A stretch of 64,000 bases of DNA from an uncultured bacterium (GCA_937879955.1 CALFMK010000001.1:201578-265577), one strand, 5' to 3'; shown: positions 6,137 through 41,826, counted from the stretch's first letter. The notes: a model not told the origin generated them from the letters alone. Translations and numbers: made by a program.

Positions 6137-6454
6137 ATGCGCGTAACGAAAAGCATCAGCTCCTATATCATCCGCTCGAACAAGTGGATGTTCAAGGATA
6201 CGCCTGAGCGCATCGACTACCACATCGAGAGCGGCGACTACCTCCCGCTTCTCGCTACCATGATGGGGTTCATGGAGGAGGCGCTCCAGTCAAACGACAG
6301 CACCGCGGCGAACGAGAGGAAGACAGAGATCGCCCTCAAGCTCGCGCGTGAGCTCCGCAAGGACCTCCGCTACGTAGGCGCGAACTATCACCTCCTCCCG
6401 CGCGACGCGAAGGACAAGCAGGTTATCCGTTCCGGAAACGTCCTCGCGAGCTAG
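6137..6454 (+). CDS. hypothetical protein
   Basis: 105-aa ORF, no recognisable motif. Convergent with the metalloprotease gene. Confidence 0.35.
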   Translation: MRVTKSISSYIIRSNKWMFKDTPERIDYHIESGDYLPLLATMMGFMEEALQSNDSTAANERKTEIALKLARELRKDLRYVGANYHLLPRDAKDKQVIRSGNVLAS

Positions 6455-7365
6455 AGCTTGCAGGCTTCCTTGAGCGCCGTCACATCGGCGTCCGCGAGCT
6501 CGAACGTGTTGCCGATATTGTAGGAGTACATCACGGAGTCCGGATCGTCCGTATGGTCGAGCCCGAGCGCGTGCCCGAACTCGTGCGCGAGCACCCGCTT
6601 CAGCTCCATGGTGTCATCGAACTCGAATATGGTGATGCGCTTCCCTTTCTCGTCAGCGACATAGTTCCCCTGGTCGAAGTCATGGCCGACCGCCTCGTTA
6701 TAGACGTCGACCTTCGCGTTGAGGCGGCTCGCGAGCGCGTTCAGCTCCCTGACGTCGGACTGTATCGAGTCCGCGAGCGCGTTTATGCGGTCTACCGACT
6801 CGCTGAGGCGGGTACGCATGCTCGCGAGCCGCGCCTTCTCTGACTCGAGCGCCTGATACTCCGCCGGCGGCGCTCCGCCCCGCTCGTTCCAGTACGAGAC
6901 CTTCTCCTCGTATGCGTCCACGGCCGCGTCATACGCGCGCTGCTGCCGCTCATAGCTCGCCGTGGCAGAGGTATAGCGCTCACGGGTCGCGTCTATCTCC
7001 TCTTTCATGTCGTCATACGCGCGCTGGTCCGCGCTGATGTCGTCGCCAATCTTCACGGCCTCCTGACGCTCGTCATAGGCGAGATTCACGGACACCTCGG
7101 GACTCGACGAGACCTCGATGAGAGTCTTTCCAGCGGCCGCGTTCCAGAGCCCTGCGGCGTCCTTCGCGGCCTGCTCGAATGTAGCGCGCGAGATGCCGAA
7201 CCGCGCGTCATACGTGCCTATGGCATAGCGGACCGGTTCCGAGCACGGCTTCTTGAGCGCATCGAGGGAGAATGACGGGTTATGCCCGAGCACCGCGTAC
7301 GCGAGAAGCCCGGCGACCGCGACCGGAAGGAGGTACCTCACGACCGGCTTGAGGGATTCCTGCAT
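6451..7365 (-). CDS. secreted zinc metalloprotease, metzincin/matrixin-like (HExxHxxGxxH) with long coiled-coil insert
   Basis: Signal peptide MQESLKPVVRYLLPVAVAGLLAYAVLG. C-terminal VLAHEFGHALGLDHTDDPDSVMY is the metzincin zinc-binding motif plus Met-turn. Central region is coiled-coil-like (EE..YDA..AYEEKV...). Confidence 0.75.
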   Translation of the reverse strand: MQESLKPVVRYLLPVAVAGLLAYAVLGHNPSFSLDALKKPCSEPVRYAIGTYDARFGISRATFEQAAKDAAGLWNAAAGKTLIEVSSSPEVSVNLAYDERQEAVKIGDDISADQRAYDDMKEEIDATRERYTSATASYERQQRAYDAAVDAYEEKVSYWNERGGAPPAEYQALESEKARLASMRTRLSESVDRINALADSIQSDVRELNALASRLNAKVDVYNEAVGHDFDQGNYVADEKGKRITIFEFDDTMELKRVLAHEFGHALGLDHTDDPDSVMYSYNIGNTFELADADVTALKEACKL

Positions 7366-20280: not shown

Positions 20281-21144
20281 ATGCATGATACCATTTCGGC
20301 CATCGTGAACCGAACGGACGACCCTTCCCCCATACTGTGCGTCGTAGGCCCCACGGCCTCCGGCAAGTCCGCGCGCGCGGTCGCGCTCGCGAAGGAGCTC
20401 GACGGCGAGGTTATCTCCGTCGACTCCCGTCAAGTGTATCGCATGCTCGATATCGGGACCGAGAAGACGACCCTCGAAGAGATGGACGGCATCCCGCATC
20501 ATCTCATCGACATACGCGACCCGAGGGAGACCTATAGCGCGGGCGACTTCGTGAAGGACGCCGAGCGGTTGATCGAGGAGATTCGCGCCCGCGGGAAGCG
20601 CCCGATCCTCGCCGGCGGCACCCACTTCTACTTCGACGCGCTCCTCTACGGCCTTCCGGAGACCACGGAACCGGACCTCGCACTGCGCGCGGCGCTCGAG
20701 AAGCGCTCCGAGGAATCCCTCATGCAGGAGATACGCGAACGGGACCCGCGCCGAGCCGAGCGCATCGATCCGATGAACAAGCGACGCCTGGTCCGCGCGC
20801 TCGAGATAATCGCCACGCATGGCCACGTGCCCGAGCGCGACACGGCAGAAGCCCGCCATGCCGTTGAGTGGGTGGTGCTCAATCCTGAGCGCGACGAGCT
20901 CCGCGAGCGCATCGAGAAGCGCCTCGAGCGGGCGCTCGATAACGGTCTCATCGAGGAGGTGCGGAAGGTGCGCGAGTATGTCGGCGACGCACGGCTCGAC
21001 GAGCTCGGCCTCGAGTACCGCATCATCGGCGAGTACCTGCGGGACGAGCGCAGCCTCGAATCATTGCTGCCATCCCTCTCATCGAAGGTCTGGCATTACG
21101 CGCGGCATCAGAAGTCCTGGCTGCGCAGGCTCGAGGCCGCGTAG
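20281..21144 (+). CDS. miaA: tRNA dimethylallyltransferase
   Basis: P-loop VVGPTASGKSARAVALA, ISVDSRQVYR, DIGTEK are MiaA family hallmarks. Confidence 0.9.
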   Translation: MHDTISAIVNRTDDPSPILCVVGPTASGKSARAVALAKELDGEVISVDSRQVYRMLDIGTEKTTLEEMDGIPHHLIDIRDPRETYSAGDFVKDAERLIEEIRARGKRPILAGGTHFYFDALLYGLPETTEPDLALRAALEKRSEESLMQEIRERDPRRAERIDPMNKRRLVRALEIIATHGHVPERDTAEARHAVEWVVLNPERDELRERIEKRLERALDNGLIEEVRKVREYVGDARLDELGLEYRIIGEYLRDERSLESLLPSLSSKVWHYARHQKSWLRRLEAA

Positions 21145-22068
21145 CTATCGGCCCGTCGGCGACCAGTGCACCGGATCGTCCGGGATGGCGTTGCGGAAGT
21201 TCCACTTTCCCCCGTTCGCCTTCAGCCACTGGTACGCCTTCGTGTTGCAGCTGCTGTTCCCGTTCGAGCAGCCGACGTTCAGGTCGAGCGCCTGTCCGGA
21301 GTTATGGTTCGATCCTGCGCCGCCGAGCGAGCATGGCATCGCGGTGGCGACGCGGCAGGTGCCGGTGGAGACGGAGCAGCCGTTCTGGTTCCAGAGCGCG
21401 ACCTGCGCCGCGTCCGAGCGGTACGCGCTCGTCACCTTCAGGTCCACGCCGTCCTTGAGCGCTGCGGCGCGCATGTCCATGAAATTCTTGACCGTCGTAG
21501 GCGTGGCCTTGCCTGAACCGCCTATGACCACCGAAGCGTCGAACGATACCATGGTCGACTCGGCAGGGACCGGGCAGTTCGTGCCAGTGCCGCCTCCGGT
21601 GCTGCCGGACGGCGCGCCCGGGACCGCGGTGATGGAGCCGTCGAAGAGGGGCGTGGTCGGCTTCGCCTCGATGCAATTCTCTCCGGTCGCGTCGAGAAGT
21701 ATCGAGTTCCAAGGACCGAACTGCCCGCCGTAGAGCGTCTTCATCACGAAGTCCACGATGAGCCATGCCGAGAGCACGATGCAGAGCCCAACGAACGCGT
21801 TCAGGAGCATGCTGCTCGCCGTGCCGCGCATCTCGGGGTTCGTCGGGGAGAGTATGTAGAGCCCGCCTGCCCACGCGACGATGATGGTCGCCACGATGAT
21901 AGAGATGCCGATGAGGAGGTTCGAGACGTTCTGGATGATGGCGAGCACGCCGCCGAACCCGCACGGGCACACCTGGCAGACGTCCGGCACGATCGGGCCG
22001 AACTGCGCATGCGCGTAGACCGGCACGAGCATGAGGAACGCGATGATCAAGGGAAGAAATCGTCTCAT
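21145..22068 (-). CDS. fusion protein: N-terminal TrbC/VirB2-like pilin-type membrane domain plus C-terminal peptidase M15 (VanY / D-Ala-D-Ala carboxypeptidase-like) domain
   Basis: Signal peptide MRRFLPLIIAFLMLVPVYAHA. Two-helix domain GFGGVLAIIQNV...LSAWLIVDFVMKTL is paralogous to the VirB2-like array at 38589-40511. C-terminal SAYRSDAAQVALW...HNSGQALDL resembles the M15 zinc-peptidase signature (SxxRxxxxQ...HxxGxAxD). Confidence 0.6.
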   Translation of the reverse strand: MRRFLPLIIAFLMLVPVYAHAQFGPIVPDVCQVCPCGFGGVLAIIQNVSNLLIGISIIVATIIVAWAGGLYILSPTNPEMRGTASSMLLNAFVGLCIVLSAWLIVDFVMKTLYGGQFGPWNSILLDATGENCIEAKPTTPLFDGSITAVPGAPSGSTGGGTGTNCPVPAESTMVSFDASVVIGGSGKATPTTVKNFMDMRAAALKDGVDLKVTSAYRSDAAQVALWNQNGCSVSTGTCRVATAMPCSLGGAGSNHNSGQALDLNVGCSNGNSSCNTKAYQWLKANGGKWNFRNAIPDDPVHWSPTGR

Positions 22069-22070
22069 GC

Positions 22071-22640
22071 TTATGGAAGACGGAACGACCCCTGACAAAA
22101 GCTGAGGCCCAGGTTCTGATAGGCCGAGAAGGCCTCGTTCACGCTGTACGGGACCCCGACGAGGATATCGAGCGTGCAGAGCTGTGCGTCCGTGAGCTCG
22201 AGCGTGTCGCGCAGGAACGCTTCCGCGGCGAGGCGCGAGGCGCCGAGCGGCTCCTCGTTCAGCGTCACGACGAACTGCGACCCCTCCTGATTGAACTGCA
22301 CGTCGAACGCGTGCGTCGGGTACGGCTTCCCTGGCTCGTAGTCAGGATAGGGCGTGAGGTCGTACTGCAGGTTCGTGGCACCCTCGCCGATCTGGACCGA
22401 GCTCTTTCCGGTCGTGAAGTCCGGCACGTCCACGGACTCCTGGTCCGCCGTCTCGATCGTGCGCGTCGTCACCGTCGCGCCAGACGTGCCGTCGGTGAGC
22501 GATCCGAACGGATTCGTTCCGGTCGGGCTTGTAGGGACGGTGCCCGTCGACTGCCCCTGAGAGAGGAGCACGTACGCGAGCACGGCGATGCCGAGGAGTA
22601 CGAGGACGACCGCGCTGCCGATGATCACCGATGTCTTCAT
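22071..22640 (-). CDS. membrane-anchored hypothetical protein (TM, Thr/Gly-rich linker, globular C-terminal domain)
   Basis: MKTSVIIGSAVVLVLLGIAVLAYVLL... ATG at 22638-22640 overlaps the upstream gene stop (ATGA). 2-nt gap to the downstream gene start. Confidence 0.5.
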   Translation of the reverse strand: MKTSVIIGSAVVLVLLGIAVLAYVLLSQGQSTGTVPTSPTGTNPFGSLTDGTSGATVTTRTIETADQESVDVPDFTTGKSSVQIGEGATNLQYDLTPYPDYEPGKPYPTHAFDVQFNQEGSQFVVTLNEEPLGASRLAAEAFLRDTLELTDAQLCTLDILVGVPYSVNEAFSAYQNLGLSFCQGSFRLP

Positions 22641-23647
22641 AGGCCCATGATACCAAACGCGAGCGGCCGGCTTTGCATGCTGTCCGCGAGCCCGCACTTC
22701 TTCGCGGCGCCCCACGGCGACCATGTCGCATGCGCGTCGAGATAGATCTTGTGCGCGGTAGCGATGTTGTTCGCCGGATTGATGGCGGCGGCCCTGCACT
22801 TGTTATAGAGCGTAGCGTCAACGACGCGGACGCCTGACCCTGCGCCGCACGAGCTCACGGTGCAGCTCTGCTTGCTGAAAGCGGCCGGACAGTTCAGTCC
22901 GCCTATCTTGTGCGCCGTTATGTTTATCTGGAACAGGCCGAACGAGTACGGCGTGCCGTCCCCGAGCCTGTCCACGCCGCTCGGGAGGCTCGCGTTGCCG
23001 TGGCTCTCGCCATAGCAGACCCGGGAGGCATTCTCCGCCGCCGTGCCGAACACGCCAAGCGCGCTCACCGCGCAGGAGCCGCTCGTCTGCGCGAGACAGG
23101 TGCCTCCTCCCGTGCTCTTGGTGGAAGTGCCTGTTCCACTATCCTGTCCAGGAATCCAGGTGATCTTGCCGTCGAAGAGCGGCTTCGTGTCCGTAGCCGT
23201 GACGCACACGTTCCCGCCCGAGAGGATCGTATTCCACGGCCCCCAGCCCTCGAGGTTCTGGTTGTAGAGGAGCTTCATCACGAAATCCACGATGAGCCAG
23301 GCCGAGAGGATGATGAGCAGCCCTATGGCGGCGTTCGTGAGCACCTTCTTCGCCTGCGAATGGTTCTCGGGGTTCGTAGGCGTCAGGATCCAGAGGATGC
23401 CGGCGAACGCGATCACGATGACGCAGATGATGATGCCGAAGGAAACCGACGCGTTCATCAGGTTCTGGATGAGCTGCAGCACGCCGCCGAATCCGAGCGG
23501 CGCCCCTACCGGGCAGTTGCTGTCGAGATCGTGCGCTTCCGGGACGAGCTGCCAGTTCGGATCGAGGAGCGGAAGGGACTGCGCGGACGCCGCAAATGGC
23601 AGGCACAGGAGAAGCGCGAGGAGGAGCGGGGCCCAGAGCCGGTTCAT
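22637..23647 (-). CDS. fusion protein: N-terminal TrbC/VirB2-like pilin-type domain plus C-terminal lytic transglycosylase (SLT/VirB1-like lysozyme-fold) domain
   Basis: Signal peptide MNRLWAPLLLALLLCLPFAASA. N-domain GFGGVLQLIQNL...LSAWLIVDFVMKLL is paralogous to gene 21145-22068. C-terminal CYGESHGNASL...YSFGLFQINITAHK fits the SLT catalytic E-S ... GLxQI motif. Confidence 0.6.
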   Translation of the reverse strand: MNRLWAPLLLALLLCLPFAASAQSLPLLDPNWQLVPEAHDLDSNCPVGAPLGFGGVLQLIQNLMNASVSFGIIICVIVIAFAGILWILTPTNPENHSQAKKVLTNAAIGLLIILSAWLIVDFVMKLLYNQNLEGWGPWNTILSGGNVCVTATDTKPLFDGKITWIPGQDSGTGTSTKSTGGGTCLAQTSGSCAVSALGVFGTAAENASRVCYGESHGNASLPSGVDRLGDGTPYSFGLFQINITAHKIGGLNCPAAFSKQSCTVSSCGAGSGVRVVDATLYNKCRAAAINPANNIATAHKIYLDAHATWSPWGAAKKCGLADSMQSRPLAFGIMGL

Positions 23648-23749
23648 GGAATGATTGTAGCCCGGAGGACCGCAGAGGACGCGTTCTTTTCCCCTTCCCG
23701 CCTATCTGGTATCGTACGGATACGCGCCGTCCTGAGACGCTAACTGACA

Positions 23750-23820
23750 GGGTCCATAGTTTAGTGGTAGAACATCGGTCTCCAAAACCGATAGTGTAGG
23801 TTCGATTCCTACTGGGCCCG
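23750..23820 (+). tRNA. tRNA-Trp (anticodon CCA), no encoded CCA
   Basis: GGGTCCA acceptor, D-arm GTTT-AGTGGTA-GAAC, anticodon stem TCGGT/ACCGA with loop CTCCAAA, T-arm GTAGG-TTCGATT-CCTAC. Frame anchored via antisense ORF 23702..24043. Confidence 0.85.
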
Positions 23821-23995
23821 CATATAAATTAAGAAACCACGCGTAGATGCGTGGTTGAAAGTGAAGCCGTGCTCCGCTCAGTGACATTTCGACACCATTG
23901 CCTGACGACATAGTCAGAAGTGGGCATTGAGTGGCCAAGGAGTGCAAGGAACACGACTTCAGATATATCGTAGCACTAAAGACTCTTGATTTCCG

Positions 23996-24016: not shown

Positions 24017-24100
24017 CCCGCATAGCAGGAGAAAGATCCGCAAAAAGAAGCCGCCCCGGTCATGAAGACCGAGGCGGATATGTCAGGCTGGCGTACGGAT

Positions 24101-24496
24101 TCAGTCCTGTTGCTTCACGACCCCTTGTTCCAGCTGAGTGAATATGTCAGCCAGCGGGAGATGGCCAGCTCTAGGCTCTGCCTCCCTCTTCGGCTTCGAG
24201 CGTTCCATCCGAGCGAATATGTCGGCCAGAGGCAGATTGTCGGCTTCAGGTCCTACCTCCTCCGGCTTCAATTGTTCCAGCTGAGTGAATATGTCATTGA
24301 GCGGAAGAGGGCCGGCTTGAACCGCTGCCTCCTCCCTCGGTATCGATTGTTCCGGCTGATCCACTATCTCAGCCTGCGGCAAAGGGTGGCCCATCGATTC
24401 AATGCAGAGCATATCCACCCTAGACGGAAAGGTCTTGTAGTCAAAATCAGACGGTAGACCGATGCGCTTACAGAGAGTGTCAATGTCACTAACCAT
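24101..24496 (-). CDS. acidic repeat protein (3-4 tandem LPLADIFTQLEQ-type repeats), unknown function
   Basis: Four degenerate ~75-nt tandem DNA repeats. Protein repeats GPLPLNDIFTQLEQ / DNLPLADIFARMER / GHLPLADIFTQLEQ. Strong promoter and SD upstream. Confidence 0.55.
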   Translation of the reverse strand: MVSDIDTLCKRIGLPSDFDYKTFPSRVDMLCIESMGHPLPQAEIVDQPEQSIPREEAAVQAGPLPLNDIFTQLEQLKPEEVGPEADNLPLADIFARMERSKPKREAEPRAGHLPLADIFTQLEQGVVKQQD

Positions 24497-24516
24497 AGAG
24501 TAAGGTCCTCTTTTCT

Positions 24517-24551
24517 AGTATACATTATAGACTATAATGTATATATGTCAA
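24517..24551 (-). promoter_or_regulatory. consensus sigma70-type promoter (-35 TTGACA, 16-nt spacer, -10 TATAAT) overlapped by a 12-bp perfect palindrome
   Basis: Minus strand reads TTGACA-tatatacattatagtc-TATAAT ... AAAGAGGA ... ATG(24496). Palindrome TATACATTATAG-A-CTATAATGTATA at 24519-24543 spans spacer and -10. Confidence 0.6.
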
Positions 24552-24579
24552 TACTCTCGGCCTTGCCGTCCTCTCGCGG

Positions 24580-27231
24580 CTAGCGCTTCACCACCTGGTA
24601 GATCTTCTGGGTCCGGTACACGTCGCCTGCCGGCACAGGGACGCCGCTCAGCGTGCCGGCGTACGGGCGGAGGTAGTACTTGATGTACCCGTCGGAGCGT
24701 TCCTGGAGGGACGATGTCTCGCGCGCGTTCGATTGGTACACGGGATCCGCGTAGTGGCGGTCCACCTCGTCCATGTTGAGCATGCGCGCGAGTATGCCGT
24801 AGCTGTCGTTATAGAAGGCTGCGGTGAGGAGGCGCGGGGCGACAGGATGCGTCGAGTCGGTATGCGCGGTGTACGCGGTCGCGTCCGGGTCAGGGATGCT
24901 CGTCCCGAACAGCTCGAAGCCTCCATCAGCGCCTGCGTTGCCGACGCTCGTATCCGGCCCCACGAGCATCAGCGCGTAATCTTCCTTGACCACCGAGTCC
25001 ACCGCCAGGGTGCGGGTGACGTCAGGGATGTAGCCCTTCGAGGTCACGAGCAGGTCATAGTCTACGTCCGCCGCCTTCGAGCTGTCTTCAGCGAACGTGA
25101 GCATGGTCGAGAATTGCGCCCGCATGCGGTCACCTATCCATGTCGTGCCGTTCGCGGCGCTCGCATAGTCTATCGGCGCGCCGTCCATGGATATGACGAG
25201 ATCGGCAGGACCCGTCTCGTGGCCGTGCGTGCCTCCGATGAACGCGGAGGCCGAAGGATCCGATCCTTGCTTATAGAGGTTTACGGCGAGCTCTATGTTA
25301 CCGACTCCGATCACGGTCGTGTTGCCGATCGTCTCCGGGGTCGTCCGCTCGTCCTGACCCATGTCATCGAACTCATCGACGCCAAGCGTTCCAACCTGCG
25401 TCTCATCGCTTATCATCAGGCCGCCGTCGTAGACGCGGTATCCGGTGGACGAGGCATTCTTCGTAGGCAACCCCTCGAGCGTGAGCACGTAGCTTGCCTT
25501 GTCGAGCCCGCTTGCCAGAGGAGTGCTCTTGACGGAGGTCCCGGCGCTGTACGTGTCCACGTCCTTCGTGGTGACGAGCGTACCTGCCTGATCATAGACC
25601 GACGCGCGGACGATGCCTCCCGTAGAGAGATAGCCGGCCCTCCAGTCTATCTTGGTGCCTGTGAACGGATAGACGATCGCTCCGCCCGGGAACAGCGTCC
25701 GGTTGACCGTCTGGGACGCGAGCGTGGTGCTCTGCCATGAGCTCAGCAGTCCCTTCGTCGTGATGCGATCGAGGGACGGGTAGGTCTGCATGCCGCCGTC
25801 ATACACTCGCCCATTTACAGGATTCGATGACGAGACGGCGATATCAACGGTATACGTTCCGGCAGGAAGCCCTGTCGCGAGCGCGACAAACTGGATGCCT
25901 GACGAATTACCCGTCAGATTGACCTGGCGCTCGCCGCCTGTAAGCGGTATGGCGTAATGCTCAGAGCTTATCTCGACTCCGCTCGTCTTGATGGTTATGG
26001 CAGCGATGCCTGCGCCACTCGCCTGTCCAAGGGTCCGCCACACGATTCGATCATTGGTGTCTATCGTTACGGTATACGTGGTCCGGTCACCTGGCGTCTG
26101 AGAGTAGATGATATCCGTGACGCCGCTGTTGGTCGCAGGCCCGACGAACGTCCCGGTACGGGAGCCCGCGCTCGTTCCCTGCGAGGTCTTTGACGAGGTC
26201 GCCTGCGTGCCGGAGACGGAGTTCGCGGCAGGCAGAGACTCGACGAAGCTTGCGTAGAGCTTGGCTATGGAGGCCCGGCGCATGCGCGCAGGCCCGGCGA
26301 GTCCCGGGTTCAGCCGTTCGCTGAAGAACCAGCGCACGTAATCCGTCCCGCCGAGCGGCGCGTAGACGACAAACTCGTCATAATCGCTTCGCAGCTTCTT
26401 GAGGAGAAGGGGCTCGAGATCATCCTCGCCCGTAGTGAACGTGAGGTCAGAAGAAGGAGTGGCGTTTCCTTCCGCATCGGCAGACCGCACGCGGAAGTGG
26501 TAGGTAGCGAACGCGGTAAGGCCGGTAAGCGTTATGGAATGGGACGTAACGAGCGTCGCCGAGGTGGATGCCGTGCCGTACGACGTCGTGGTTCCGAAAT
26601 CAACGCGCGAATCGCTCGGCTCGTCCGTGGTCCAGGTGATGGTCGCGGTGGTCTGGGTCACGGAAGAATCGATATCCGAGATGCTCGGCGCCGCCGGCAC
26701 TGCGGCGGGAGAGCTGCTCTTGTGCCCTCCGCTCCTCTTGGGTGCATCGATAGATGGTGCGCCGGTCGTTATGGACTCTGACGCGGCGATGGTCGCCTGA
26801 TCGAGCATTCCCGTGAGCGAGACGGCGTAGTACCCCGCGTTCCGCAGGAGCTGCTGAAGCTGGGTGATGAGCGAGGAGAGGAAAGATGGGGATGGGGATG
26901 GGGATGCAATGATGCTATCTGAAGATGTAGGGGATGCAATAACCTCCCCGTTTAGGATCGCGCGTGTCGCAGGCCCTACGTAGCCGAGAGATTCGAGTCC
27001 TTGGGACTTCTGGAAGTCCGCAACGGCCTGGAGCGTTACCTGGCCGTAGTAGCCGGTGACGTCCGCATTGAAGAAGCCCTTCTCCTTGAGAAGGGTCTGG
27101 AGCGCGGAGACGTCGGACCCGCTCATGCCCTTCTCGAGTGGGCGCTCGAACGTCGCTGCGGAGGCGAAGGGAGGCACGAGCAAGAACGCCACGAAGAAAG
27201 CGAAAGACGCCTTGCGGAAGCCAGAGAGCAT
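24580..27231 (-). CDS. large secreted cell-wall-associated protein (signal peptide, peptidoglycan-binding domain, fibronectin type III domain, beta-rich C-terminal region)
   Basis: Signal peptide MLSGFRKASFAFFVAFLLVPPFASA (ORF track extends to 27324). PG_binding_1-like block LEKGMSGSDVSALQTLLKEKGFFNADVTGYYGQVTLQAVADFQKSQGL. FN3-like ITWTTDEPSDSRVDFGTT...YHFRVRSAD. Confidence 0.65.
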   Translation of the reverse strand: MLSGFRKASFAFFVAFLLVPPFASAATFERPLEKGMSGSDVSALQTLLKEKGFFNADVTGYYGQVTLQAVADFQKSQGLESLGYVGPATRAILNGEVIASPTSSDSIIASPSPSPSFLSSLITQLQQLLRNAGYYAVSLTGMLDQATIAASESITTGAPSIDAPKRSGGHKSSSPAAVPAAPSISDIDSSVTQTTATITWTTDEPSDSRVDFGTTTSYGTASTSATLVTSHSITLTGLTAFATYHFRVRSADAEGNATPSSDLTFTTGEDDLEPLLLKKLRSDYDEFVVYAPLGGTDYVRWFFSERLNPGLAGPARMRRASIAKLYASFVESLPAANSVSGTQATSSKTSQGTSAGSRTGTFVGPATNSGVTDIIYSQTPGDRTTYTVTIDTNDRIVWRTLGQASGAGIAAITIKTSGVEISSEHYAIPLTGGERQVNLTGNSSGIQFVALATGLPAGTYTVDIAVSSSNPVNGRVYDGGMQTYPSLDRITTKGLLSSWQSTTLASQTVNRTLFPGGAIVYPFTGTKIDWRAGYLSTGGIVRASVYDQAGTLVTTKDVDTYSAGTSVKSTPLASGLDKASYVLTLEGLPTKNASSTGYRVYDGGLMISDETQVGTLGVDEFDDMGQDERTTPETIGNTTVIGVGNIELAVNLYKQGSDPSASAFIGGTHGHETGPADLVISMDGAPIDYASAANGTTWIGDRMRAQFSTMLTFAEDSSKAADVDYDLLVTSKGYIPDVTRTLAVDSVVKEDYALMLVGPDTSVGNAGADGGFELFGTSIPDPDATAYTAHTDSTHPVAPRLLTAAFYNDSYGILARMLNMDEVDRHYADPVYQSNARETSSLQERSDGYIKYYLRPYAGTLSGVPVPAGDVYRTQKIYQVVKR

Positions 27232-27320
27232 TAGAAAGAGTATATCACTTGCGTCTGCACCGTTGAGCAGAAAGCCAACATAGAAAAAGAGGCGGCACGA
27301 ATGCCGCCTCATGTAGTGAC

Positions 27321-27791
27321 TCACGCTGCGAGCTCTCCCGTCCTGGACGCGTCACGCGCGAACGACAGGACGGCGAACGGATCATTGAGCGAGAACGCCA
27401 CATGCGCGCTCGTCGCCTCATACCTCAGTTCCTGGATCTCCAGATTCCAAGACCCGTCCTTGTAATTGGCCATGAGGATCCGGACGGTTCCTTCGGCGTC
27501 GAGCACATGGAACGAGTAGCTCCCAGGCGGAGCTTCCCGGAGGAAATGGAACGCATGCGCCCACGCGACCGACAGCTTCTCGGCCGGCAGGCGCGGCATG
27601 AGCTGCGCCATCGCGACCGCCTGCACGTCGCGCTCGACGATCGCGCCCTCCTTCAGGAGCTCCTTGAGCCTCTGGCCGATCAGGCTGATCTTCAGCGCGC
27701 CGTCCGACCCGACCTTGAAATGGTCCTGGACGTCGAAGTAGTCGACCGCGAGCACGGTAGCGACCGGAATACGATTCTCTTGGAACGGCAT
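27321..27791 (-). CDS. hypothetical protein
   Basis: ATG at 27789-27791 (MPFQENRIP...). Upstream in-frame extension looks non-coding. Confidence 0.4.
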   Translation of the reverse strand: MPFQENRIPVATVLAVDYFDVQDHFKVGSDGALKISLIGQRLKELLKEGAIVERDVQAVAMAQLMPRLPAEKLSVAWAHAFHFLREAPPGSYSFHVLDAEGTVRILMANYKDGSWNLEIQELRYEATSAHVAFSLNDPFAVLSFARDASRTGELAA

Positions 27792-36624: not shown

Positions 36625-36727
36625 CATACGACGTATCTATTGACTTTTAGTCAATTTAGGTGTTAAAATATATCCAGACAACGGTACCTTGAGAGCAAGG
36701 TGCATTAGCTATCGAAGGAGATTCGCG

Positions 36728-37861
36728 ATGAGCCCACAACACGAAGCGGATCCCTCGGATCCGCGCATTAAGGCCGTCGAGGTCCACCCTGGACTCTACA
36801 AGGCCCTTATTTACGCCACACTGGGCGCCTATGGCGTACTGCTGCTGGTCGCAATCGCGACCTGGAACATCACGCCGATTCCCCATCTGAACATCGGCTT
36901 CCCGATCATCGCGATCGTGGTAGCGCATTTCTGCTCCTCATGGGGCGCGGTACAGACGGATGAATGGGCGGCACTCTACTTCTACGGTCGCGCGTTGCGA
37001 CAACTGAAGTCCGGTCCGTATTTCATGCCGAGAGGCCTGATGCAGATCGTGAAAGTGCCCAAAGGTCTCAAGCAGGCCCAGGCACCCGGGGAGCCAGAAG
37101 AAATATTCCACGGCGACGATAAGGAGCCTCTCCCTATCATGCCGAACGGCAAGCAGATGGTACGACCCATCCGCGTGACGACGAGAGCCCCAAAGGAAGG
37201 CGAGACTGGTCATCTGGACGTACAGATGACCTATGAGTGGTCATTCTACTACCAGTATCAAGTCCTCGACCTCTTTCAGTTCATCGCCACCGTCGGAAGC
37301 TTCGAAGAGGCTTCGCGCCTCATCAGAGACACCGGCGAGGCGACACTGAACGAGTTCGCATCAGACATGACCGTGAACGGCATGATCGTGAACCTGAAAC
37401 AAATCAATCAGGCGCTCGATAACCGGATACGCGAACTGGTCAACGCATGGAGCATGCAGGTCTATGAGGTGAAGGCACTTGCGCCCAATCTCTCGCACGG
37501 CCTCGCCACCGCCCTGCGTAACCTCCCGATCGCCAGACTCGAGGCCGAACAGGCCGAGACGGCTGGCAAGGGGGCGCGCCGCAGGATGGAAGAAGAGGGT
37601 GCAGGCGCGGCAGCGGCCAGGGCAGCGATGCTCCAAGCCGAAGCCACGGGCCGCGAGCAGTTTCTCAAGGCCGAAGCGAACGGACTTAAGGCGAAGAAAG
37701 ATGCTCTCGATATAAGCGGCGAGGACATCCTCGTTGGCGAAGTCGCGAGCGACGCCTTGAAGCACGCTGACAGTCTAATGGTCGGCGCCGGAGACGGTGT
37801 CCGAGACCTACTCGGCATGGTCAAGGCTGGCGCGTCGGTCTTGAACGGAAAGAAGGAGTAG
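36728..37861 (+). CDS. SPFH/band-7 domain protein (stomatin/prohibitin-like)
   Basis: N-terminal TM segment, SPFH core (LDVQMTYEW...VNGMIVNLKQINQALDNRIRELVNAWSMQVYEVKA), Ala/Glu-rich coiled-coil tail. SD GAAGGAGA 7 nt upstream of ATG 36728. Confidence 0.7.
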   Translation: MSPQHEADPSDPRIKAVEVHPGLYKALIYATLGAYGVLLLVAIATWNITPIPHLNIGFPIIAIVVAHFCSSWGAVQTDEWAALYFYGRALRQLKSGPYFMPRGLMQIVKVPKGLKQAQAPGEPEEIFHGDDKEPLPIMPNGKQMVRPIRVTTRAPKEGETGHLDVQMTYEWSFYYQYQVLDLFQFIATVGSFEEASRLIRDTGEATLNEFASDMTVNGMIVNLKQINQALDNRIRELVNAWSMQVYEVKALAPNLSHGLATALRNLPIARLEAEQAETAGKGARRRMEEEGAGAAAARAAMLQAEATGREQFLKAEANGLKAKKDALDISGEDILVGEVASDALKHADSLMVGAGDGVRDLLGMVKAGASVLNGKKE

Positions 37862-38588: not shown

Positions 38589-38837
38589 CTATGGCGCCCC
38601 TACCGTAGCGCTCAGGAGCGAGACGATCGCGTTCGCGCCGAAGATGATCACGAGGCCGATGATGCCCCAGATCATGTGCTGCTGGCCCGTGGAGCGCTTC
38701 TCCTCGTTGTCCGCGCTCGCGATGAACTCGACGATACCCCAGATGAATATGAGGAACGCGCCGAGCGCGAGCAGCGTGATGATCGGCGTCAGGATCGCAT
38801 CCTGGACCTTGGTGATGAATGTGTCGAATGCGTTCAT
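38589..38837 (-). CDS. TrbC/VirB2-like small membrane protein (pilin-like), paralog 1
   Basis: Two hydrophobic helices separated by an ADNEEKRSTGQQ loop. WGIIGLVIIFGANAIV pattern shared with the four neighbouring paralogs. Confidence 0.55.
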   Translation of the reverse strand: MNAFDTFITKVQDAILTPIITLLALGAFLIFIWGIVEFIASADNEEKRSTGQQHMIWGIIGLVIIFGANAIVSLLSATVGAP

Positions 38838-38903
38838 AGGCGTCAGTATAGCAGAACGCCCGCAGTCTCCTGCGGGCGTTCTGCTATAGCTGTGGGTTCA
38901 GGA

Positions 38904-39269
38904 CTAGTTGACCTGAACCGAAGGAGTCACGTCTCCGACCGACGGCGCTCCGTTATTGAGCACGAAGGTTCCGCGGAGGATGTTCACGAGGCCCCACACG
39001 GATGCCATCACGAAGAAGCCGATGATGCCCCAGAGCATGAGGCTCTTGCCGGCCTCGCGCTTCTCCTCGTCTGCGCCTCCAGCGATGAAGTACTGGAACA
39101 CGCCCCAGATGAACACGACGAACGCGACGGCGAATACGAGCGGAACGAGGATGTTGTTGATGAGGGCGATGATCCCCTGTCCGATCGATCCTGCGCTGTC
39201 GGCCGTGACCTGCGCAGAGACGAGCGCTGGGAATACGAGAGCAGCGACGATGTAACCAAATTTCTTCAT
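38904..39269 (-). CDS. TrbC/VirB2-like small secreted membrane protein, paralog 2
   Basis: Signal peptide MKKFGYIVAALVFPALVSA, then LVPLVFAVAFVVFIWGVFQYFIAGGADEEKREAGKSLMLWGIIGFFVMASVWGLVNIL. Confidence 0.6.
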   Translation of the reverse strand: MKKFGYIVAALVFPALVSAQVTADSAGSIGQGIIALINNILVPLVFAVAFVVFIWGVFQYFIAGGADEEKREAGKSLMLWGIIGFFVMASVWGLVNILRGTFVLNNGAPSVGDVTPSVQVN

Positions 39270-39365
39270 AATGGATGTTTACGGATAACGCTTTGCGTAT
39301 TCATCTAGCATAGACCGGAATGAAGGCGCGTCAATAGAGCCTTTCAGGCCGTGTGGAAAACACTA

Positions 39366-39767
39366 TTACGGCGTCGGGCCGATCGAGCCGCCGCTGCCAG
39401 GATTGAACGTCGGAAGGTCCGGTGCGTTCACATTCCCGAACCCGAAGGTACCCACGAGCACGTTCACGAGGCCCCACACCGACACCATCACGAAGAAGCC
39501 GACGATGCCCCATATCGCGAGCTGCTTGCCCTGGTCACGCTTCTCCTCGTTCGCGCCGCCCGCGATGAAATAGAGGAAGATGCCCCAGATGAACGTGACG
39601 AACGCCACCGCGAACACCACCGGCACGAGCACGGCGTTGATGAAGCCGATGATGCTGAGGAGATACTGGGAGACCGTATTGCCGCCGATCTCGCCGCTCT
39701 GTGCATGGACGGCTCCGGCGGATACGAGGAACAACGCGAGCGAAAGGGCGAGTGTGCGGAATGTCAT
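39366..39767 (-). CDS. TrbC/VirB2-like small secreted membrane protein, paralog 3
   Basis: Signal peptide MTFRTLALSLALFLVSAGAVHA, then LVPVVFAVAFVTFIWGIFLYFIAGGANEEKRDQGKQLAIWGIVGFFVMVSVWGLVNVL. Confidence 0.6.
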   Translation of the reverse strand: MTFRTLALSLALFLVSAGAVHAQSGEIGGNTVSQYLLSIIGFINAVLVPVVFAVAFVTFIWGIFLYFIAGGANEEKRDQGKQLAIWGIVGFFVMVSVWGLVNVLVGTFGFGNVNAPDLPTFNPGSGGSIGPTP

Positions 39768-39816
39768 AGTACGTTTCAGAGTAGCAAGTAATGAAGGTCG
39801 GTCCAGAGCTTATGCA

Positions 39817-40119
39817 CTAGCCAGGAAGCGCCGTGAGCAGCAGGCGGACGATACCCCACACGGAGAACATCACCACGAACCCGATGATGCCCCAGAGCAT
39901 GAATGTCTTCCCTTTCTCCCGGCCTTCCTCGCCGCCGAGGAAGAAGAAGCGCACCATGCCGATAAGGAAGAGGATAAACGCGATCGAATAGATGAGCGGG
40001 ACCACAGCGGTGTTCACGAGCTCAACGATATCGGCCGTGAACTCCTTGAAGCTCGCGGCATGCGCGAAAGAAGGGATGACGAGCGCGAGAGAAGCGGACG
40101 CGAGGAGAAGCTTGCGCAT
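39817..40119 (-). CDS. TrbC/VirB2-like small secreted membrane protein, paralog 4
   Basis: Start MRKLLLASASLALVIPSFAHA (ATG 40117-40119). Core VVPLIYSIAFILFLIGMVRFFFLGGEEGREKGKTFMLWGIIGFVVMFSVWGIVRLL. Confidence 0.55.
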   Translation of the reverse strand: MRKLLLASASLALVIPSFAHAASFKEFTADIVELVNTAVVPLIYSIAFILFLIGMVRFFFLGGEEGREKGKTFMLWGIIGFVVMFSVWGIVRLLLTALPG

Positions 40120-40121
40120 GG

Positions 40122-40511
40122 TTACTGTACGATCGAATCCACCGTGCCCGTTATGATTGCCTGAATGCCGGTCGCGCCGAGCAGCACGAGGCCGCCGATG
40201 ATGGTCCACACGAGCGCGCTCTTCGCGCCCTGGAGCTTCTCCGCGTTCCCTCTCGCCGCGACGAAGAGGAAGCCCACGTAGACGAGCATCATGATGAGGA
40301 CGATCGTGCCGAGCCGTATCACGCCGTTGAGGATCGCGGTAAGAAACTCGTCGAGCGTGCTCACGCCGTTGAGCGGGTTCGTGAGTCCTGTGCTTACCGT
40401 CGTATTCCCGCCCGTGTTCGTGACTTGATCCGCGCGCGCCGCCGACGGAATCAGGAGTGCGAGCGCCAACGTCGCGGAGAAGCTCCTGATAGCACTGCTC
40501 ATGGTTCGCAT
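40122..40511 (-). CDS. TrbC/VirB2-like small secreted membrane protein, paralog 5 (more divergent)
   Basis: Signal peptide, then LGTIVLIMMLVYVGFLFVAARGNAEKLQGAKSALVWTIIGGLVLLGATGI. 2-nt spacing to paralog 4. Confidence 0.5.
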   Translation of the reverse strand: MRTMSSAIRSFSATLALALLIPSAARADQVTNTGGNTTVSTGLTNPLNGVSTLDEFLTAILNGVIRLGTIVLIMMLVYVGFLFVAARGNAEKLQGAKSALVWTIIGGLVLLGATGIQAIITGTVDSIVQ

Positions 40512-40521
40512 AGGATGGTGA

Positions 40522-41826
40522 TTATTTTAGTGCCGCGTCGAGCGACTGGCTCGCGGTCGACAGCGCGGTCGAGACCGTCGCCTTCCCCGTCGCGATGCTG
40601 CTAACCATCGTACCAAAGATACGGTCGGTCTCGGACGGCATCGGGGATAGCCAGCCCTTCGCGATGAGCGCCTCCGGGTAGTACACCGGCTCGTAGAGGT
40701 CGCCGCTCGAAGGCGAGAGCGCGTCGCGCCTCGCGGGCGCCATACCGAGCGCATGCGCGAAGAGGGGCACGGTCTCCTTCGACGACAATACCTGCGCAAC
40801 GCGCACGGCCCCTGATCCGTTCTTCGCGGCGCGCGGAACGGCGAACGCATAGGCCTTGCCGTACGTGATGCGGGTCGCGCTCTGCGCCGGGGCGGGCACG
40901 GGCGCCATGTCGAAGTCGAGATTCGGGTTCGCCTCGGAGAGGTCAGCGCGCTCGGACGCATAGCCGAGATAGAGCGCGAGGTCGCCCGAGAGGAACGCGA
41001 GGCGGTTCTCCGGGAGCGAGCGGTTCCAGGAGTACGCCGTCTTCGCCGGGTTCGCGAACTCGGTGTAGAAGTTGAGCGCACTCTCTGCGGGCTTGGTCCC
41101 GAAGGACGAGCCCTTCACGTCCGTGAGGTCCGACTCGATGCCGCTCGCCGTGCGGCCGGCGATGCCGTAGCCTGCCTGCATGAAGAGGAGCGAGATGATC
41201 GCGCGCGCGTTGTCGATGTTCTCGTAGGTACCGAGCGCGATGAGGCTCTTCACGACCTGCTGCGCTTCCGTCTGACGGTTCACCACCGACGTGAGGCCCG
41301 TCACCGCCTCCCAGGTGGACGGAGGACGCGCCGCGCCCGCCGACGCGAGGACCGGGCGGTTGTAGTAGAGCATCAAGGGGTCGACGAGGAACGGGATGCC
41401 GAACGTACCGCCCGTCGTGAGGAAGAGCTCGCTGATCGGCAGGTAGGAATCGCGGAAGTCGCGCTCGGATATGACCGAGGACGGCACCATGGAGAGCTTC
41501 CCCTCCGCCGCAGCGAGGTCCTCCTGCGAGATGAGGATGAGGTCCGGACCGCGCCCCGAAGCGATTGCTTCCGCAAGATCCGCATCGAAGGTGTCCGCGG
41601 AGCGCTCGAGGTAGGTGACGCTCGCGTACTCCGGCTTCCCCTGCTTCACGGCGCCGAGCGCCTCGTTCATGGCGCCTGCAGGCAAGGTGCCCCAGATAGA
41701 GACCGTGCCAACCTGCGGCGCGCCGGTCGAGAAGCCCTGGAAGGTCGCGAACAGGACGAGGCCGGCGAGCGCGACGAGGCCGAACACGGCCATGATGATG
41801 ATCTGGAACGGCTTCATGGTTGCCAT
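40522..41826 (-). CDS. extracellular solute-binding protein (ABC transporter substrate-binding, family 1-like), membrane-anchored
   Basis: N-terminal TM anchor MATMKPFQIIIMAVFGLVALAGLVLFA. About 400-aa periplasmic-binding-protein-like body. Family assignment by composition, moderate. Confidence 0.55.
   Translation of the reverse strand: MATMKPFQIIIMAVFGLVALAGLVLFATFQGFSTGAPQVGTVSIWGTLPAGAMNEALGAVKQGKPEYASVTYLERSADTFDADLAEAIASGRGPDLILISQEDLAAAEGKLSMVPSSVISERDFRDSYLPISELFLTTGGTFGIPFLVDPLMLYYNRPVLASAGAARPPSTWEAVTGLTSVVNRQTEAQQVVKSLIALGTYENIDNARAIISLLFMQAGYGIAGRTASGIESDLTDVKGSSFGTKPAESALNFYTEFANPAKTAYSWNRSLPENRLAFLSGDLALYLGYASERADLSEANPNLDFDMAPVPAPAQSATRITYGKAYAFAVPRAAKNGSGAVRVAQVLSSKETVPLFAHALGMAPARRDALSPSSGDLYEPVYYPEALIAKGWLSPMPSETDRIFGTMVSSIATGKATVSTALSTASQSLDAALK

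Follow-up and report, generated by a model that had tools for sequence, protein, structure and literature searches.

Pilin-family carriers with exchangeable peptidoglycan-hydrolase-like heads in a conserved operon of Patescibacteria

We analysed a 64,000-nucleotide stretch of DNA from an uncultured bacterium (GCA_937879955.1, CALFMK010000001.1:201578-265577; hereafter the window), in which three consecutive minus-strand genes, labelled here g1, g2 and g3, span positions 23647-21145. The g1 and g3 proteins each join an N-terminal module (N-module) from T4SS_pilin (PF18895), a family of type IV secretion system (T4SS) pilins, to a C-terminal domain resembling a peptidoglycan hydrolase (the head), and g2 encodes a membrane protein. 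When related loci were compared, two independent cassettes, one made of the SLT_3 head of g1 together with g2 and the other of the g3 head, were found to be exchanged on a constant, vertically inherited scaffold. This cassette swapping of heads, the co-variation of g2 with the g1 head and a conserved synteny were the most informative features of the locus, and went beyond a first-pass annotation of the window, which had described the fusions themselves. We tentatively propose that constant pilin carriers display variable wall-cutting heads against the wall of a host or a competitor, and that g2 is a self-protecting inhibitor; we consider this reading possible, its weight falling a little short of even.

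Pairwise identities were correlated over 27 loci between five segments of the operon (g1 N-module, g1 head, g2, g3 N-module and g3 head type) and two markers, MiaA and Prx. The N-modules followed the markers, with r values against MiaA and Prx of 0.73 and 0.82 for g1 and of 0.60 and 0.85 for g3; the corresponding values were 0.35 and 0.34 for the SLT_3 head of g1, and 0.47 and 0.34 for g2. The g1 head and g2 were strongly correlated with each other (r = 0.82), also when the g1 N-module was taken into account (partial Mantel r = 0.73, p = 0.0005), and the residual correlation between the g1 head and its own N-module was -0.05. The type of the g3 head was correlated neither with MiaA or Prx nor with the N-modules (absolute r of 0.04 at most), and 15 of the 63 pairs with g1 N-modules at least 65% identical shared the same g3 head type, about as many as expected by chance.

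The boundaries of the exchanged segments were visible in the DNA of two loci whose MiaA is 90% identical (L014 and L015). Identity was about 70-97%, mostly 80-90%, over the tRNA gene, the promoter and the g1 N-module, 32-60% over the g1 head and g2, 71-83% over the g3 N-module, 22-41% over the g3 head, and 72-92% from miaA onward. Between L014 and L017, the g3 head was the sole difference. The breakpoints were sharp and were located at the ends of the N-modules. It is on these breakpoints, together with the correlations across loci, that the two-cassette interpretation is based. The locus thus combines a constant N-terminal carrier with variable C-terminal domains swapped between close relatives, and has a co-varying gene directly downstream of the g1 head (g2) but none downstream of the g3 head. 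Shared phylogeny as the cause of the correlation between the g1 head and g2 was addressed by the MiaA and Prx markers and by the DNA breakpoints; co-transfer without physical interaction could also account for it.

In the window, compared through the near-identical contig L005, the SLT_3 head was 59% identical to that of L007, although the N-modules of these two loci were only 53% identical. The heads of L001, L009 and L012 were 34-36% identical to that of the window or not detectable as related, with N-modules that were 73-77% identical. The sequences suggest that head cassettes may move between lineages.

The first-pass annotation had described g1 as an SLT-type lytic transglycosylase. A Pfam search with g1 returned no match to the canonical SLT family (PF01464), which was matched by only 1 of 70 wider relatives (E = 9e-4). 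The g1 protein itself scored below the cut-off against SLT_3 (PF18896; 16.1 bits, cut-off 27, E = 0.015); the family was detected at E ≤ 0.01 in 26 of 40 full-length g1 orthologues (best 1.1e-6) and at E ≤ 1e-3 in 38 of the 70 wider relatives (best 1.9e-12). In alignments of the g1 family, E214 was invariant, and S215, G237, Q240 and I241 were invariant or nearly so. Because most orthologues match SLT_3 and the ES and GLFQ motifs are conserved, we putatively assigned the g1 head to a divergent SLT_3/lysozyme-like family rather than to canonical SLT; it may act either as a lytic transglycosylase or as a muramidase. In an AlphaFold2 (AF2) model, the head was predicted with a local confidence (pLDDT) of about 90, and the helix formed by residues 194-215 ended at E214-S215 and was followed by a small beta region, an arrangement that would fit a lysozyme-type fold. 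A sequence and profile search of the PDB with the g1 family returned no match. The further qualification of g1 as VirB1-like applies by analogy only, as the window contains no T4SS ATPase or channel gene.

The assignment of the g3 head to the M15/VanY-type peptidases was borne out. This protein matched PF02557 (VanY) with 48.8 bits (cut-off 25) over residues 190-293, and its head carries the complete VanY/LAS zinc-peptidase signature, which consists of the zinc ligands H-x6-D...H, a catalytic acid three residues before the last histidine and the arginine of SxYRS. R217, H255, D262 and H301 were invariant in 60 g3 orthologues, with position 298 being an aspartate in 53 of them and a glutamate in 7. 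The nearest structures in the PDB, both weak matches, were a VanY-type carboxypeptidase (5zhf, E = 0.005) and the L-Ala-D-Glu peptidase Ply500 (2vo9, E = 0.009), and phage endolysin families also matched weakly.

Overall, five clusters of g3 heads were observed, among which profile comparisons detected no relationship: VanY; three types with H..D..H-like motifs (T1-T3); and a type with a Cys/His motif (T4). The H..D..H motifs of T1-T3 appear LAS-like, which is our own reading of the sequences only. A possible NlpC/P60 identity of the T4 head is suggested by CxW...HVG in its sequence and by marginal similarity to CwlO, an enzyme of that family (E = 0.065). We rejected the idea that the non-VanY heads are diverged VanY domains, as hhalign probabilities did not exceed 3.2% and profile searches of the PDB were non-significant.

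The N-modules of g1 and g3 were 47% identical over 167 residues (E = 7e-41). This similarity includes a post-hairpin motif, GPWNxIL..C..PLFDG.IT.PG (with C148 in g1), which is missing from the five free pilins encoded about 15 kb away in the window. Both N-modules scored above the PF18895 cut-off of 26.6 bits (41.8 bits for g1, over residues 58-123, and 39.1 bits for g3), as did all five free pilins, and the family was matched by 40 of 40 g1 orthologues. The first-pass annotation had placed the N-modules with the TrbC/VirB2 family; against TrbC (PF04956), both g1 (13.5 bits) and g3 (23.8 bits) remained below the cut-off of 27.9, which was passed by some orthologues (P0203, 29.4 bits; P0210, 28.3 bits). 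Based on these profiles, the link to classical VirB2 would be one at the superfamily level. The description of the N-modules as clearly paralogous to the five free pilins was generous; they belong to the same family, and pairwise similarities were weak (14-20 bits). The fusion of two pilin-family modules to two different peptidoglycan-hydrolase chemistries was supported, with PF18895 joined to an SLT_3-like head in g1 and to VanY in g3.

Putative signal peptides, as had been noted before, were read from the sequence at the start of both proteins (cleavage at A-S-A/Q in g1 and A-H-A/Q in g3). The AF2 model of g1 showed helices at residues 5-24, 53-88 and 93-128, of which the first corresponds to the signal peptide and the other two, joined by a short polar loop, to a hydrophobic hairpin. 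In 38 of 40 g1 orthologues, a single cysteine followed the hairpin and either one or three preceded it, and the other two had two before and one after; the free pilins had no such cysteines. From this pattern we infer that the flank cysteines may form a disulfide stapling the two outer-face ends of the hairpin. Paired conserved cysteines were present in the flanks of the N-modules and in both heads, and cysteines were also found in g2; together with the signal peptides, they fit an extracytoplasmic location of the products of all three genes. Within the g1 family, the hairpin was the best-conserved segment: mean pairwise identity reached 63% there, whereas it was 41% in the SLT_3 head and, in g2, only 28% in the simple transmembrane anchor. 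This argues that the hairpin is not a passive anchor. With 336 and 307 residues, enzyme heads and a window free of T4SS genes, g1 and g3 differ from a small stand-alone subunit linked to virB4.

The free pilin array (38589-40511, minus strand) adjoins genes for a solute-binding protein (SBP_bac_8; 40522-41826) and a Band_7/SPFH protein (36689-37861), with no T4SS ATPase adjacent. Its first pilin (38589-38837) lacks a signal peptide, and for its fourth gene the probable start codon is the ATG at 40119 and not the upstream GTG at 40209.

The g2 protein, as in the first-pass annotation, is a membrane-anchored protein of no known family: it had no match in Pfam, NCBIfam or PHROGs. A transmembrane helix (residues 2-28) and a low-complexity linker precede a predicted outward-facing domain (residues 58-189) with invariant Cys155 and Cys182, and the confident AF2 model (pLDDT 87.8) showed the same N-terminal helix and linker followed by a mixed alpha/beta domain. 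The family evolves fast, with only 23 detectable homologues. As g2 was homologous across all five types of g3 head and its association with type was low (r = 0.19), we rejected it as a type-specific partner of the g3 head. In L038 (10-765) and L043 (6990-8074), g2 occurred as a tandem duplicate, in the order [N-module + SLT_3]-g2-g2-[N-module + T3].

An exhaustive search with the g1 head alone returned 654 clusters at 50% identity, and of the 144 top-scoring representatives tested, 108 had the N-module, detected with our own hidden Markov model. At 90% clustering, over 260 full-length homologues of g1 were found, nearly all with PF18895 and some also with PF18896; for g3, there were over 200 homologues. 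NCBI names the g1 homologues "pilin" and assigns them to Paceibacterota or Patescibacteria, and Pfam already annotates the T4SS_pilin/SLT_3 domain pair. The pilin-hydrolase fusion, which had been called unusual, is so only against classical T4SSs; it is ordinary in Patescibacteria and present in database annotations. No description of it was found in the literature on PF18895/T4SS_pilin, on VirB2 and hydrolases of Patescibacteria or on polymorphic toxin-pilin fusions; a survey of patescibacterial T4SSs, the genetics of S. epibionticum (PMC10633639) and a 2025 review of T4SSs (PMC12102498) discuss free pilin arrays and separate VirB1-like enzymes alone. The architecture is widespread yet undescribed in Patescibacteria. 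Eight proteins with an SLT_3-like head at the C-terminus (P0314, P0318, P0329, P0344, P0351, P0357, P0358 and P0366) were of a different kind: 850-1170 residues long, they start with MAD, lack a signal peptide and have two transmembrane segments some 100-200 residues ahead of the head. With this topology, the head would seem to be intracellular, unless another route exists for export of the large N-terminal part.

Scanning of species-representative genomes gave 38 loci, all labelled Patescibacteria or apparently mis-binned metagenome-assembled genomes. The order [N-module + SLT_3]-g2-[N-module + head] was found in about 30 species of Patescibacteria, with g2 occasionally duplicated and the operon lying between tRNA-Trp and miaA. 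miaA was adjacent to the operon in 42 of 44 loci, the divergent tRNA-Trp was upstream of g1 in 10 of the 10 loci checked, and two large contigs shared a longer neighbourhood (clpB ... g1 g2 g3, miaA, prx, parB, relA, topA, dprA, serS). The operon is core chromosomal, probably leaderless and of a lineage of Paceibacteria, in the Candidate Phyla Radiation (CPR). A prophage lysis cassette or mobile element was rejected, given the tRNA-Trp-miaA synteny in 42 of 44 loci and the absence of phage genes.

The proposal that g1 has a leaderless promoter, made from the position of its -10 box, was reinforced by comparison. In 20 of 20 aligned orthologous upstream regions, TA[C/G]AAT ended exactly 6 nt before the ATG, and no Shine-Dalgarno-like sequence was present between box and start codon in any of these 20 loci. 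As the box stands at a fixed distance in every locus without such a sequence, the alignment strongly supports a leaderless transcript of g1. A simple sigma-70 scan, which requires a -35 box, found no promoter upstream of g1. Closer to the tRNA gene than this -10 box, the motifs ACGATACCAGA and GGGGAAAAG were kept in most of the 20 loci; read on the opposite strand, they look like the extended -10 and the -35 of a tRNA-Trp promoter.

The tight coupling of the three genes was verified. The start codon of g2 overlaps the stop codon of g1 in an ATGA (22640-22637), and the g2 TAA (22073-22071) is separated from the g3 ATG (22068-22066) by a spacer of 2 nt (22070-22069). Codon-position GC content was tabulated for g1 and g3, with g3 measured on the open reading frame 21145-22098, which includes 10 codons upstream of the ATG at 22068; values of 0.85-0.88 at the third position versus 0.50-0.51 at the second are what real genes in a genome of 63% GC should show. 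For g2, support came from its homologues and from gene calls at the corresponding position of related contigs. The convergent miaA (20281-21144) directly abuts g3, stop codon to stop codon (21144/21145), and no terminator-like site was found between the two, where there is no room for an intrinsic terminator. The window otherwise holds housekeeping genes (clpB, topA, relA, parB, prx, miaA, serS, infB, gyrA and others), and no open reading frame of VirB4 size, nor any virB4, virB6, prgI or other T4SS ATPase or channel gene, was found within its 64 kb. The coordinates of the main features are given in Table 1.

Table 1. Features of the operon and related elements, in window coordinates
Feature	Position	Strand	Description
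g1	22637..23647	-	336 aa, ATG; signal peptide, T4SS_pilin N-module, linker and putative SLT_3-like, lysozyme-fold head
g1 signal peptide	23582..23647	-	aa 1-22, A-S-A/Q; read from sequence; AF2 helix 5-24
g1 mature N-module	23147..23581	-	aa 23-167; Cys45 in the segment ahead of helix 53-88, then NPE loop, helix 93-128 and post-hairpin motif
g1 head	22640..23098	-	aa 184-336; SLT_3/lysozyme-like; putative catalytic Glu214 (23008-23006) in ES motif; GLFQI motif
g2	22071..22640	-	189 aa; type-II membrane protein
g3	21145..22068	-	307 aa; signal peptide, T4SS_pilin N-module, linker and predicted VanY/M15 zinc peptidase head
g3 mature N-module	21616..22005	-	aa 22-151; hairpin preceded by a CxxCxC segment and followed by the motif with Cys132; PF18895 at aa 43-108
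g3 head	21148..21543	-	aa 176-307; VanY-type; SAYRS (Arg217), SNHNSGQALD (His255, Asp262), DDPVHW (Asp298, His301)
TACAAT -10 box	23654..23659	-	6 nt before g1 ATG; leaderless-type promoter, from sequence and conservation
Conserved intergenic motifs	23686..23715		ACGATACCAGA (23715-23705) and GGGGAAAAG (23694-23686), between g1 and the divergent tRNA-Trp
tRNA-Trp	23750-23821	+	Divergent, upstream of g1
Free pilin array	38589..40511	-	Five small unfused T4SS_pilin genes, 15 kb from the operon; 5/5 above the PF18895 cut-off

The flank beyond tRNA-Trp looks like a variable spot beside the operon. When window positions 24062-27324 were compared with L001, L014, L015 and L017, DNA identity dropped to about 40% among close relatives; this segment holds a 914-aa protein with PG_binding_1 and fn3 domains (24580-27324) in the window, and L33 and a DUF1295 gene in L001. 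A 131-aa open reading frame within it (24101-24496, minus strand), for which there is a gene call in L005, a near-identical Logan contig, contains a motif of some 14 residues in three copies, LPL(A/N)DIF(T/A)(Q/R)(L/M)E(Q/R). Elsewhere in the window, a Peptidase_M10 (matrixin-type) protein (6451-7365, minus strand) amid housekeeping genes may be a further secreted hydrolase in a small genome.

In the mechanism that we propose, the products of g1 and g3 would be exported, and their constant N-terminal module of about 150 residues would be a VirB2-type T4SS pilin hairpin, with two helices in the membrane, the NPE loop in the cytoplasm and, on the outer face, flanks bearing cysteines capable of forming a disulfide. 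A flexible linker would hold the peptidoglycan-cleaving head outside the membrane, where the SLT_3 head of g1 would cut glycan strands and the VanY/M15 zinc peptidase head of g3 stem peptides; g2 would be membrane-anchored, outward-facing and matched specifically to the g1 head. The pilin module would act as a carrier, inserting like an ordinary pilin and being handled by, or docking to, the T4SS or pilus machinery that also uses the five free pilins, so that the heads would be positioned at or on this structure. Both heads together would open the peptidoglycan wall, and g2, as a cognate inhibitor or immunity-like regulator, would spare the wall of the producer. Both the turnover of cassettes and the presence of a co-varying partner would suggest a target under conflict, namely the wall of a host or a competitor. 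In S. epibionticum, the one patescibacterium amenable to genetics, the T4SS and arrays of VirB2-like pilins are essential for epibiotic growth (Wang et al. 2023, PMC10633639), and genes for two essential proteins, one lysozyme-like and one with a Hedgehog/DD-peptidase fold, adjoin virB4 and PF18895 pilins. By this parallel in the two enzymes, and because of the family membership of the carrier and its unusual conservation, we infer that the operon may be coupled to a T4SS.

Several observations weigh against this proposal. The 64-kb window contains no virB4, virB6 or prgI, and we know of no experiment showing a PF18895 protein forming a pilus. A VirB2 fold of the N-module, for which a structure comparison had been suggested, did not receive independent confirmation, as Foldseek matched the T-pilus VirB2 chain 8exh_A with a non-significant E-value of 4.2; structure searches with g1 likewise gave no independent confirmation of a lysozyme fold, two of them being swamped by matches to the hairpin. 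Unlike in classic toxin-immunity pairs, the g3 head has no downstream partner gene, being followed directly by the convergent miaA. Modularity and ready recombination are also found in peptidoglycan hydrolases with housekeeping roles, and the co-variation of adjacent segments could be explained by co-transfer alone.

A bolder version, in which the pilin modules of g1 and g3 would join the free pilins in building a T4SS-type filament, or would form its cap, to give an enzyme-studded pilus drilling the peptidoglycan of a host or rival, with g2 as the immunity protein of the lysozyme-like head, seems rather unlikely to us. If true, it would represent a new class of polymorphic effectors in which the pilin itself is the delivery domain and the swapping of heads serves to match the target or to outrun it, and the disulfide staple across the ends of the hairpin would substitute for the head-to-tail cyclisation of classical pilins.

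The hydrolases could instead serve the producer, as VirB1 equivalents that open its own wall for assembly of a T4SS channel or pilus, with the pilin module targeting them and g2 as an assembly or regulatory factor. Such a glycosidase-peptidase pair is found in the VirB1-like enzymes of Gram-positive bacteria, PrgK and TraG (pIP501) (PMC12102498), and the same pair of enzymes adjoins virB4 in S. epibionticum; a core, single-copy, syntenic operon with a highly conserved pilin module would also suit this role. However, an invariant wall of one's own should not favour replacement by unrelated heads between genomes with 90% identical MiaA, nor would a co-varying partner be expected for an own-wall enzyme, and the operon adjoins no T4SS gene in the window; we therefore consider this alternative unlikely, though it carries some weight. 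The position of the operon amid vertically inherited housekeeping genes (miaA, prx, parB, clpB), away from T4SS genes, would be natural for general autolysins acting in growth or cell separation, whose hairpin would be a mere anchor descended from a pilin, with no link to a T4SS; VanY-type enzymes are, moreover, often wall-maturation carboxypeptidases. The hairpin is nevertheless far better conserved than the true simple anchor of g2, its conserved extra flanks and cysteine pattern point to specific interactions, and head swapping runs contrary to a fixed housekeeping substrate, which makes autolysins a decidedly unlikely explanation.

It is also conceivable that the pilin domain is cleaved at the post-hairpin motif, yielding a soluble hydrolase and a mature pilin, so that the fusion would be a device for co-translation and co-export and not a tether. 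The motif stands at the boundary of the module, ahead of a disordered linker, the recombination breakpoints coincide with this boundary, and C-terminal trimming of TrbC/VirB2-type pilin precursors is established. Against such processing, which we regard as very unlikely, the operon encodes no protease, and an invariant post-hairpin cysteine paired with a pre-helix cysteine would be a structural staple rather than a cleavage site.

Under the favoured reading of constant carriers and variable heads, the operon physically joins pilin modules to wall-cutting enzymes, which would provide concrete candidates for the breaching of walls by ultra-small cells and a practical starting point for work on what T4SSs do in Patescibacteria. 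Natural head-swap variants could be related to host range, and the conserved leaderless promoter may be useful for the study of expression.

Like VirB2/TrbC-type pilins, including the PF18895 arrays of Patescibacteria (Wang et al. 2023, PMC10633639; Quinonero-Coronel et al. 2025, PMC12102498), the N-modules of g1 and g3 combine a signal peptide with a pair of hydrophobic helices and a short charged loop, but they are extended by an enzyme of about 180 residues and by conserved flanks with cysteines, and no virB4 is adjacent. They are also far better conserved than the array pilins, which are reported to be about 25% identical within arrays. PrgK of pCF10 and TraG of pIP501 are likewise membrane-anchored and extracytoplasmic, and combine a lysozyme/SLT-type glycosidase with a peptidase to open the wall (PMC12102498). 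These, however, are single proteins containing both domains behind one transmembrane helix, whereas the operon has two proteins, each with a pilin hairpin; their peptidase is of the CHAP type, in contrast to M15 or one of four other head types here; and their genes lie inside the T4SS cluster, with no co-varying partner gene described for them.

In S. epibionticum ML1, the essential T4SS cluster encodes lysozyme-like and Hedgehog/DD-peptidase-fold proteins adjacent to virB4, together with PF18895 pilins (Tables S1 and S2 of PMC10633639): SEML1_0006, with two lysozyme-like domains and a Cys peptidase, and SEML1_0007, with a C-terminal Hedgehog/DD-peptidase fold, both essential. As in our operon, lysozyme-like and LAS/M15-fold chemistries are associated with PF18895 pilins in a member of the Patescibacteria, a likeness based on annotation; unlike g1 and g3, these proteins are large, unfused, without PF18895 annotation in Table S2 and encoded inside a T4SS cluster.

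Finally, the locus resembles polymorphic toxin-immunity systems, such as contact-dependent inhibition (CDI), Rhs and the effectors of type VI and type VII secretion systems, in its constant carrier, variable head, co-varying small downstream gene and cassette replacement, a likeness drawn at the sequence level. A parallel within T4SSs is provided by the peptidoglycan-hydrolase effectors of Xanthomonas and their cognate immunity proteins (X-Tfe/X-Tfi). In contrast to the polymorphic systems, a linked partner accompanies one head but not the other, the operon occupies a fixed core position and is not an island, and the carrier is a pilin-family membrane hairpin instead of a secretion signal or a filament or Rhs shell.

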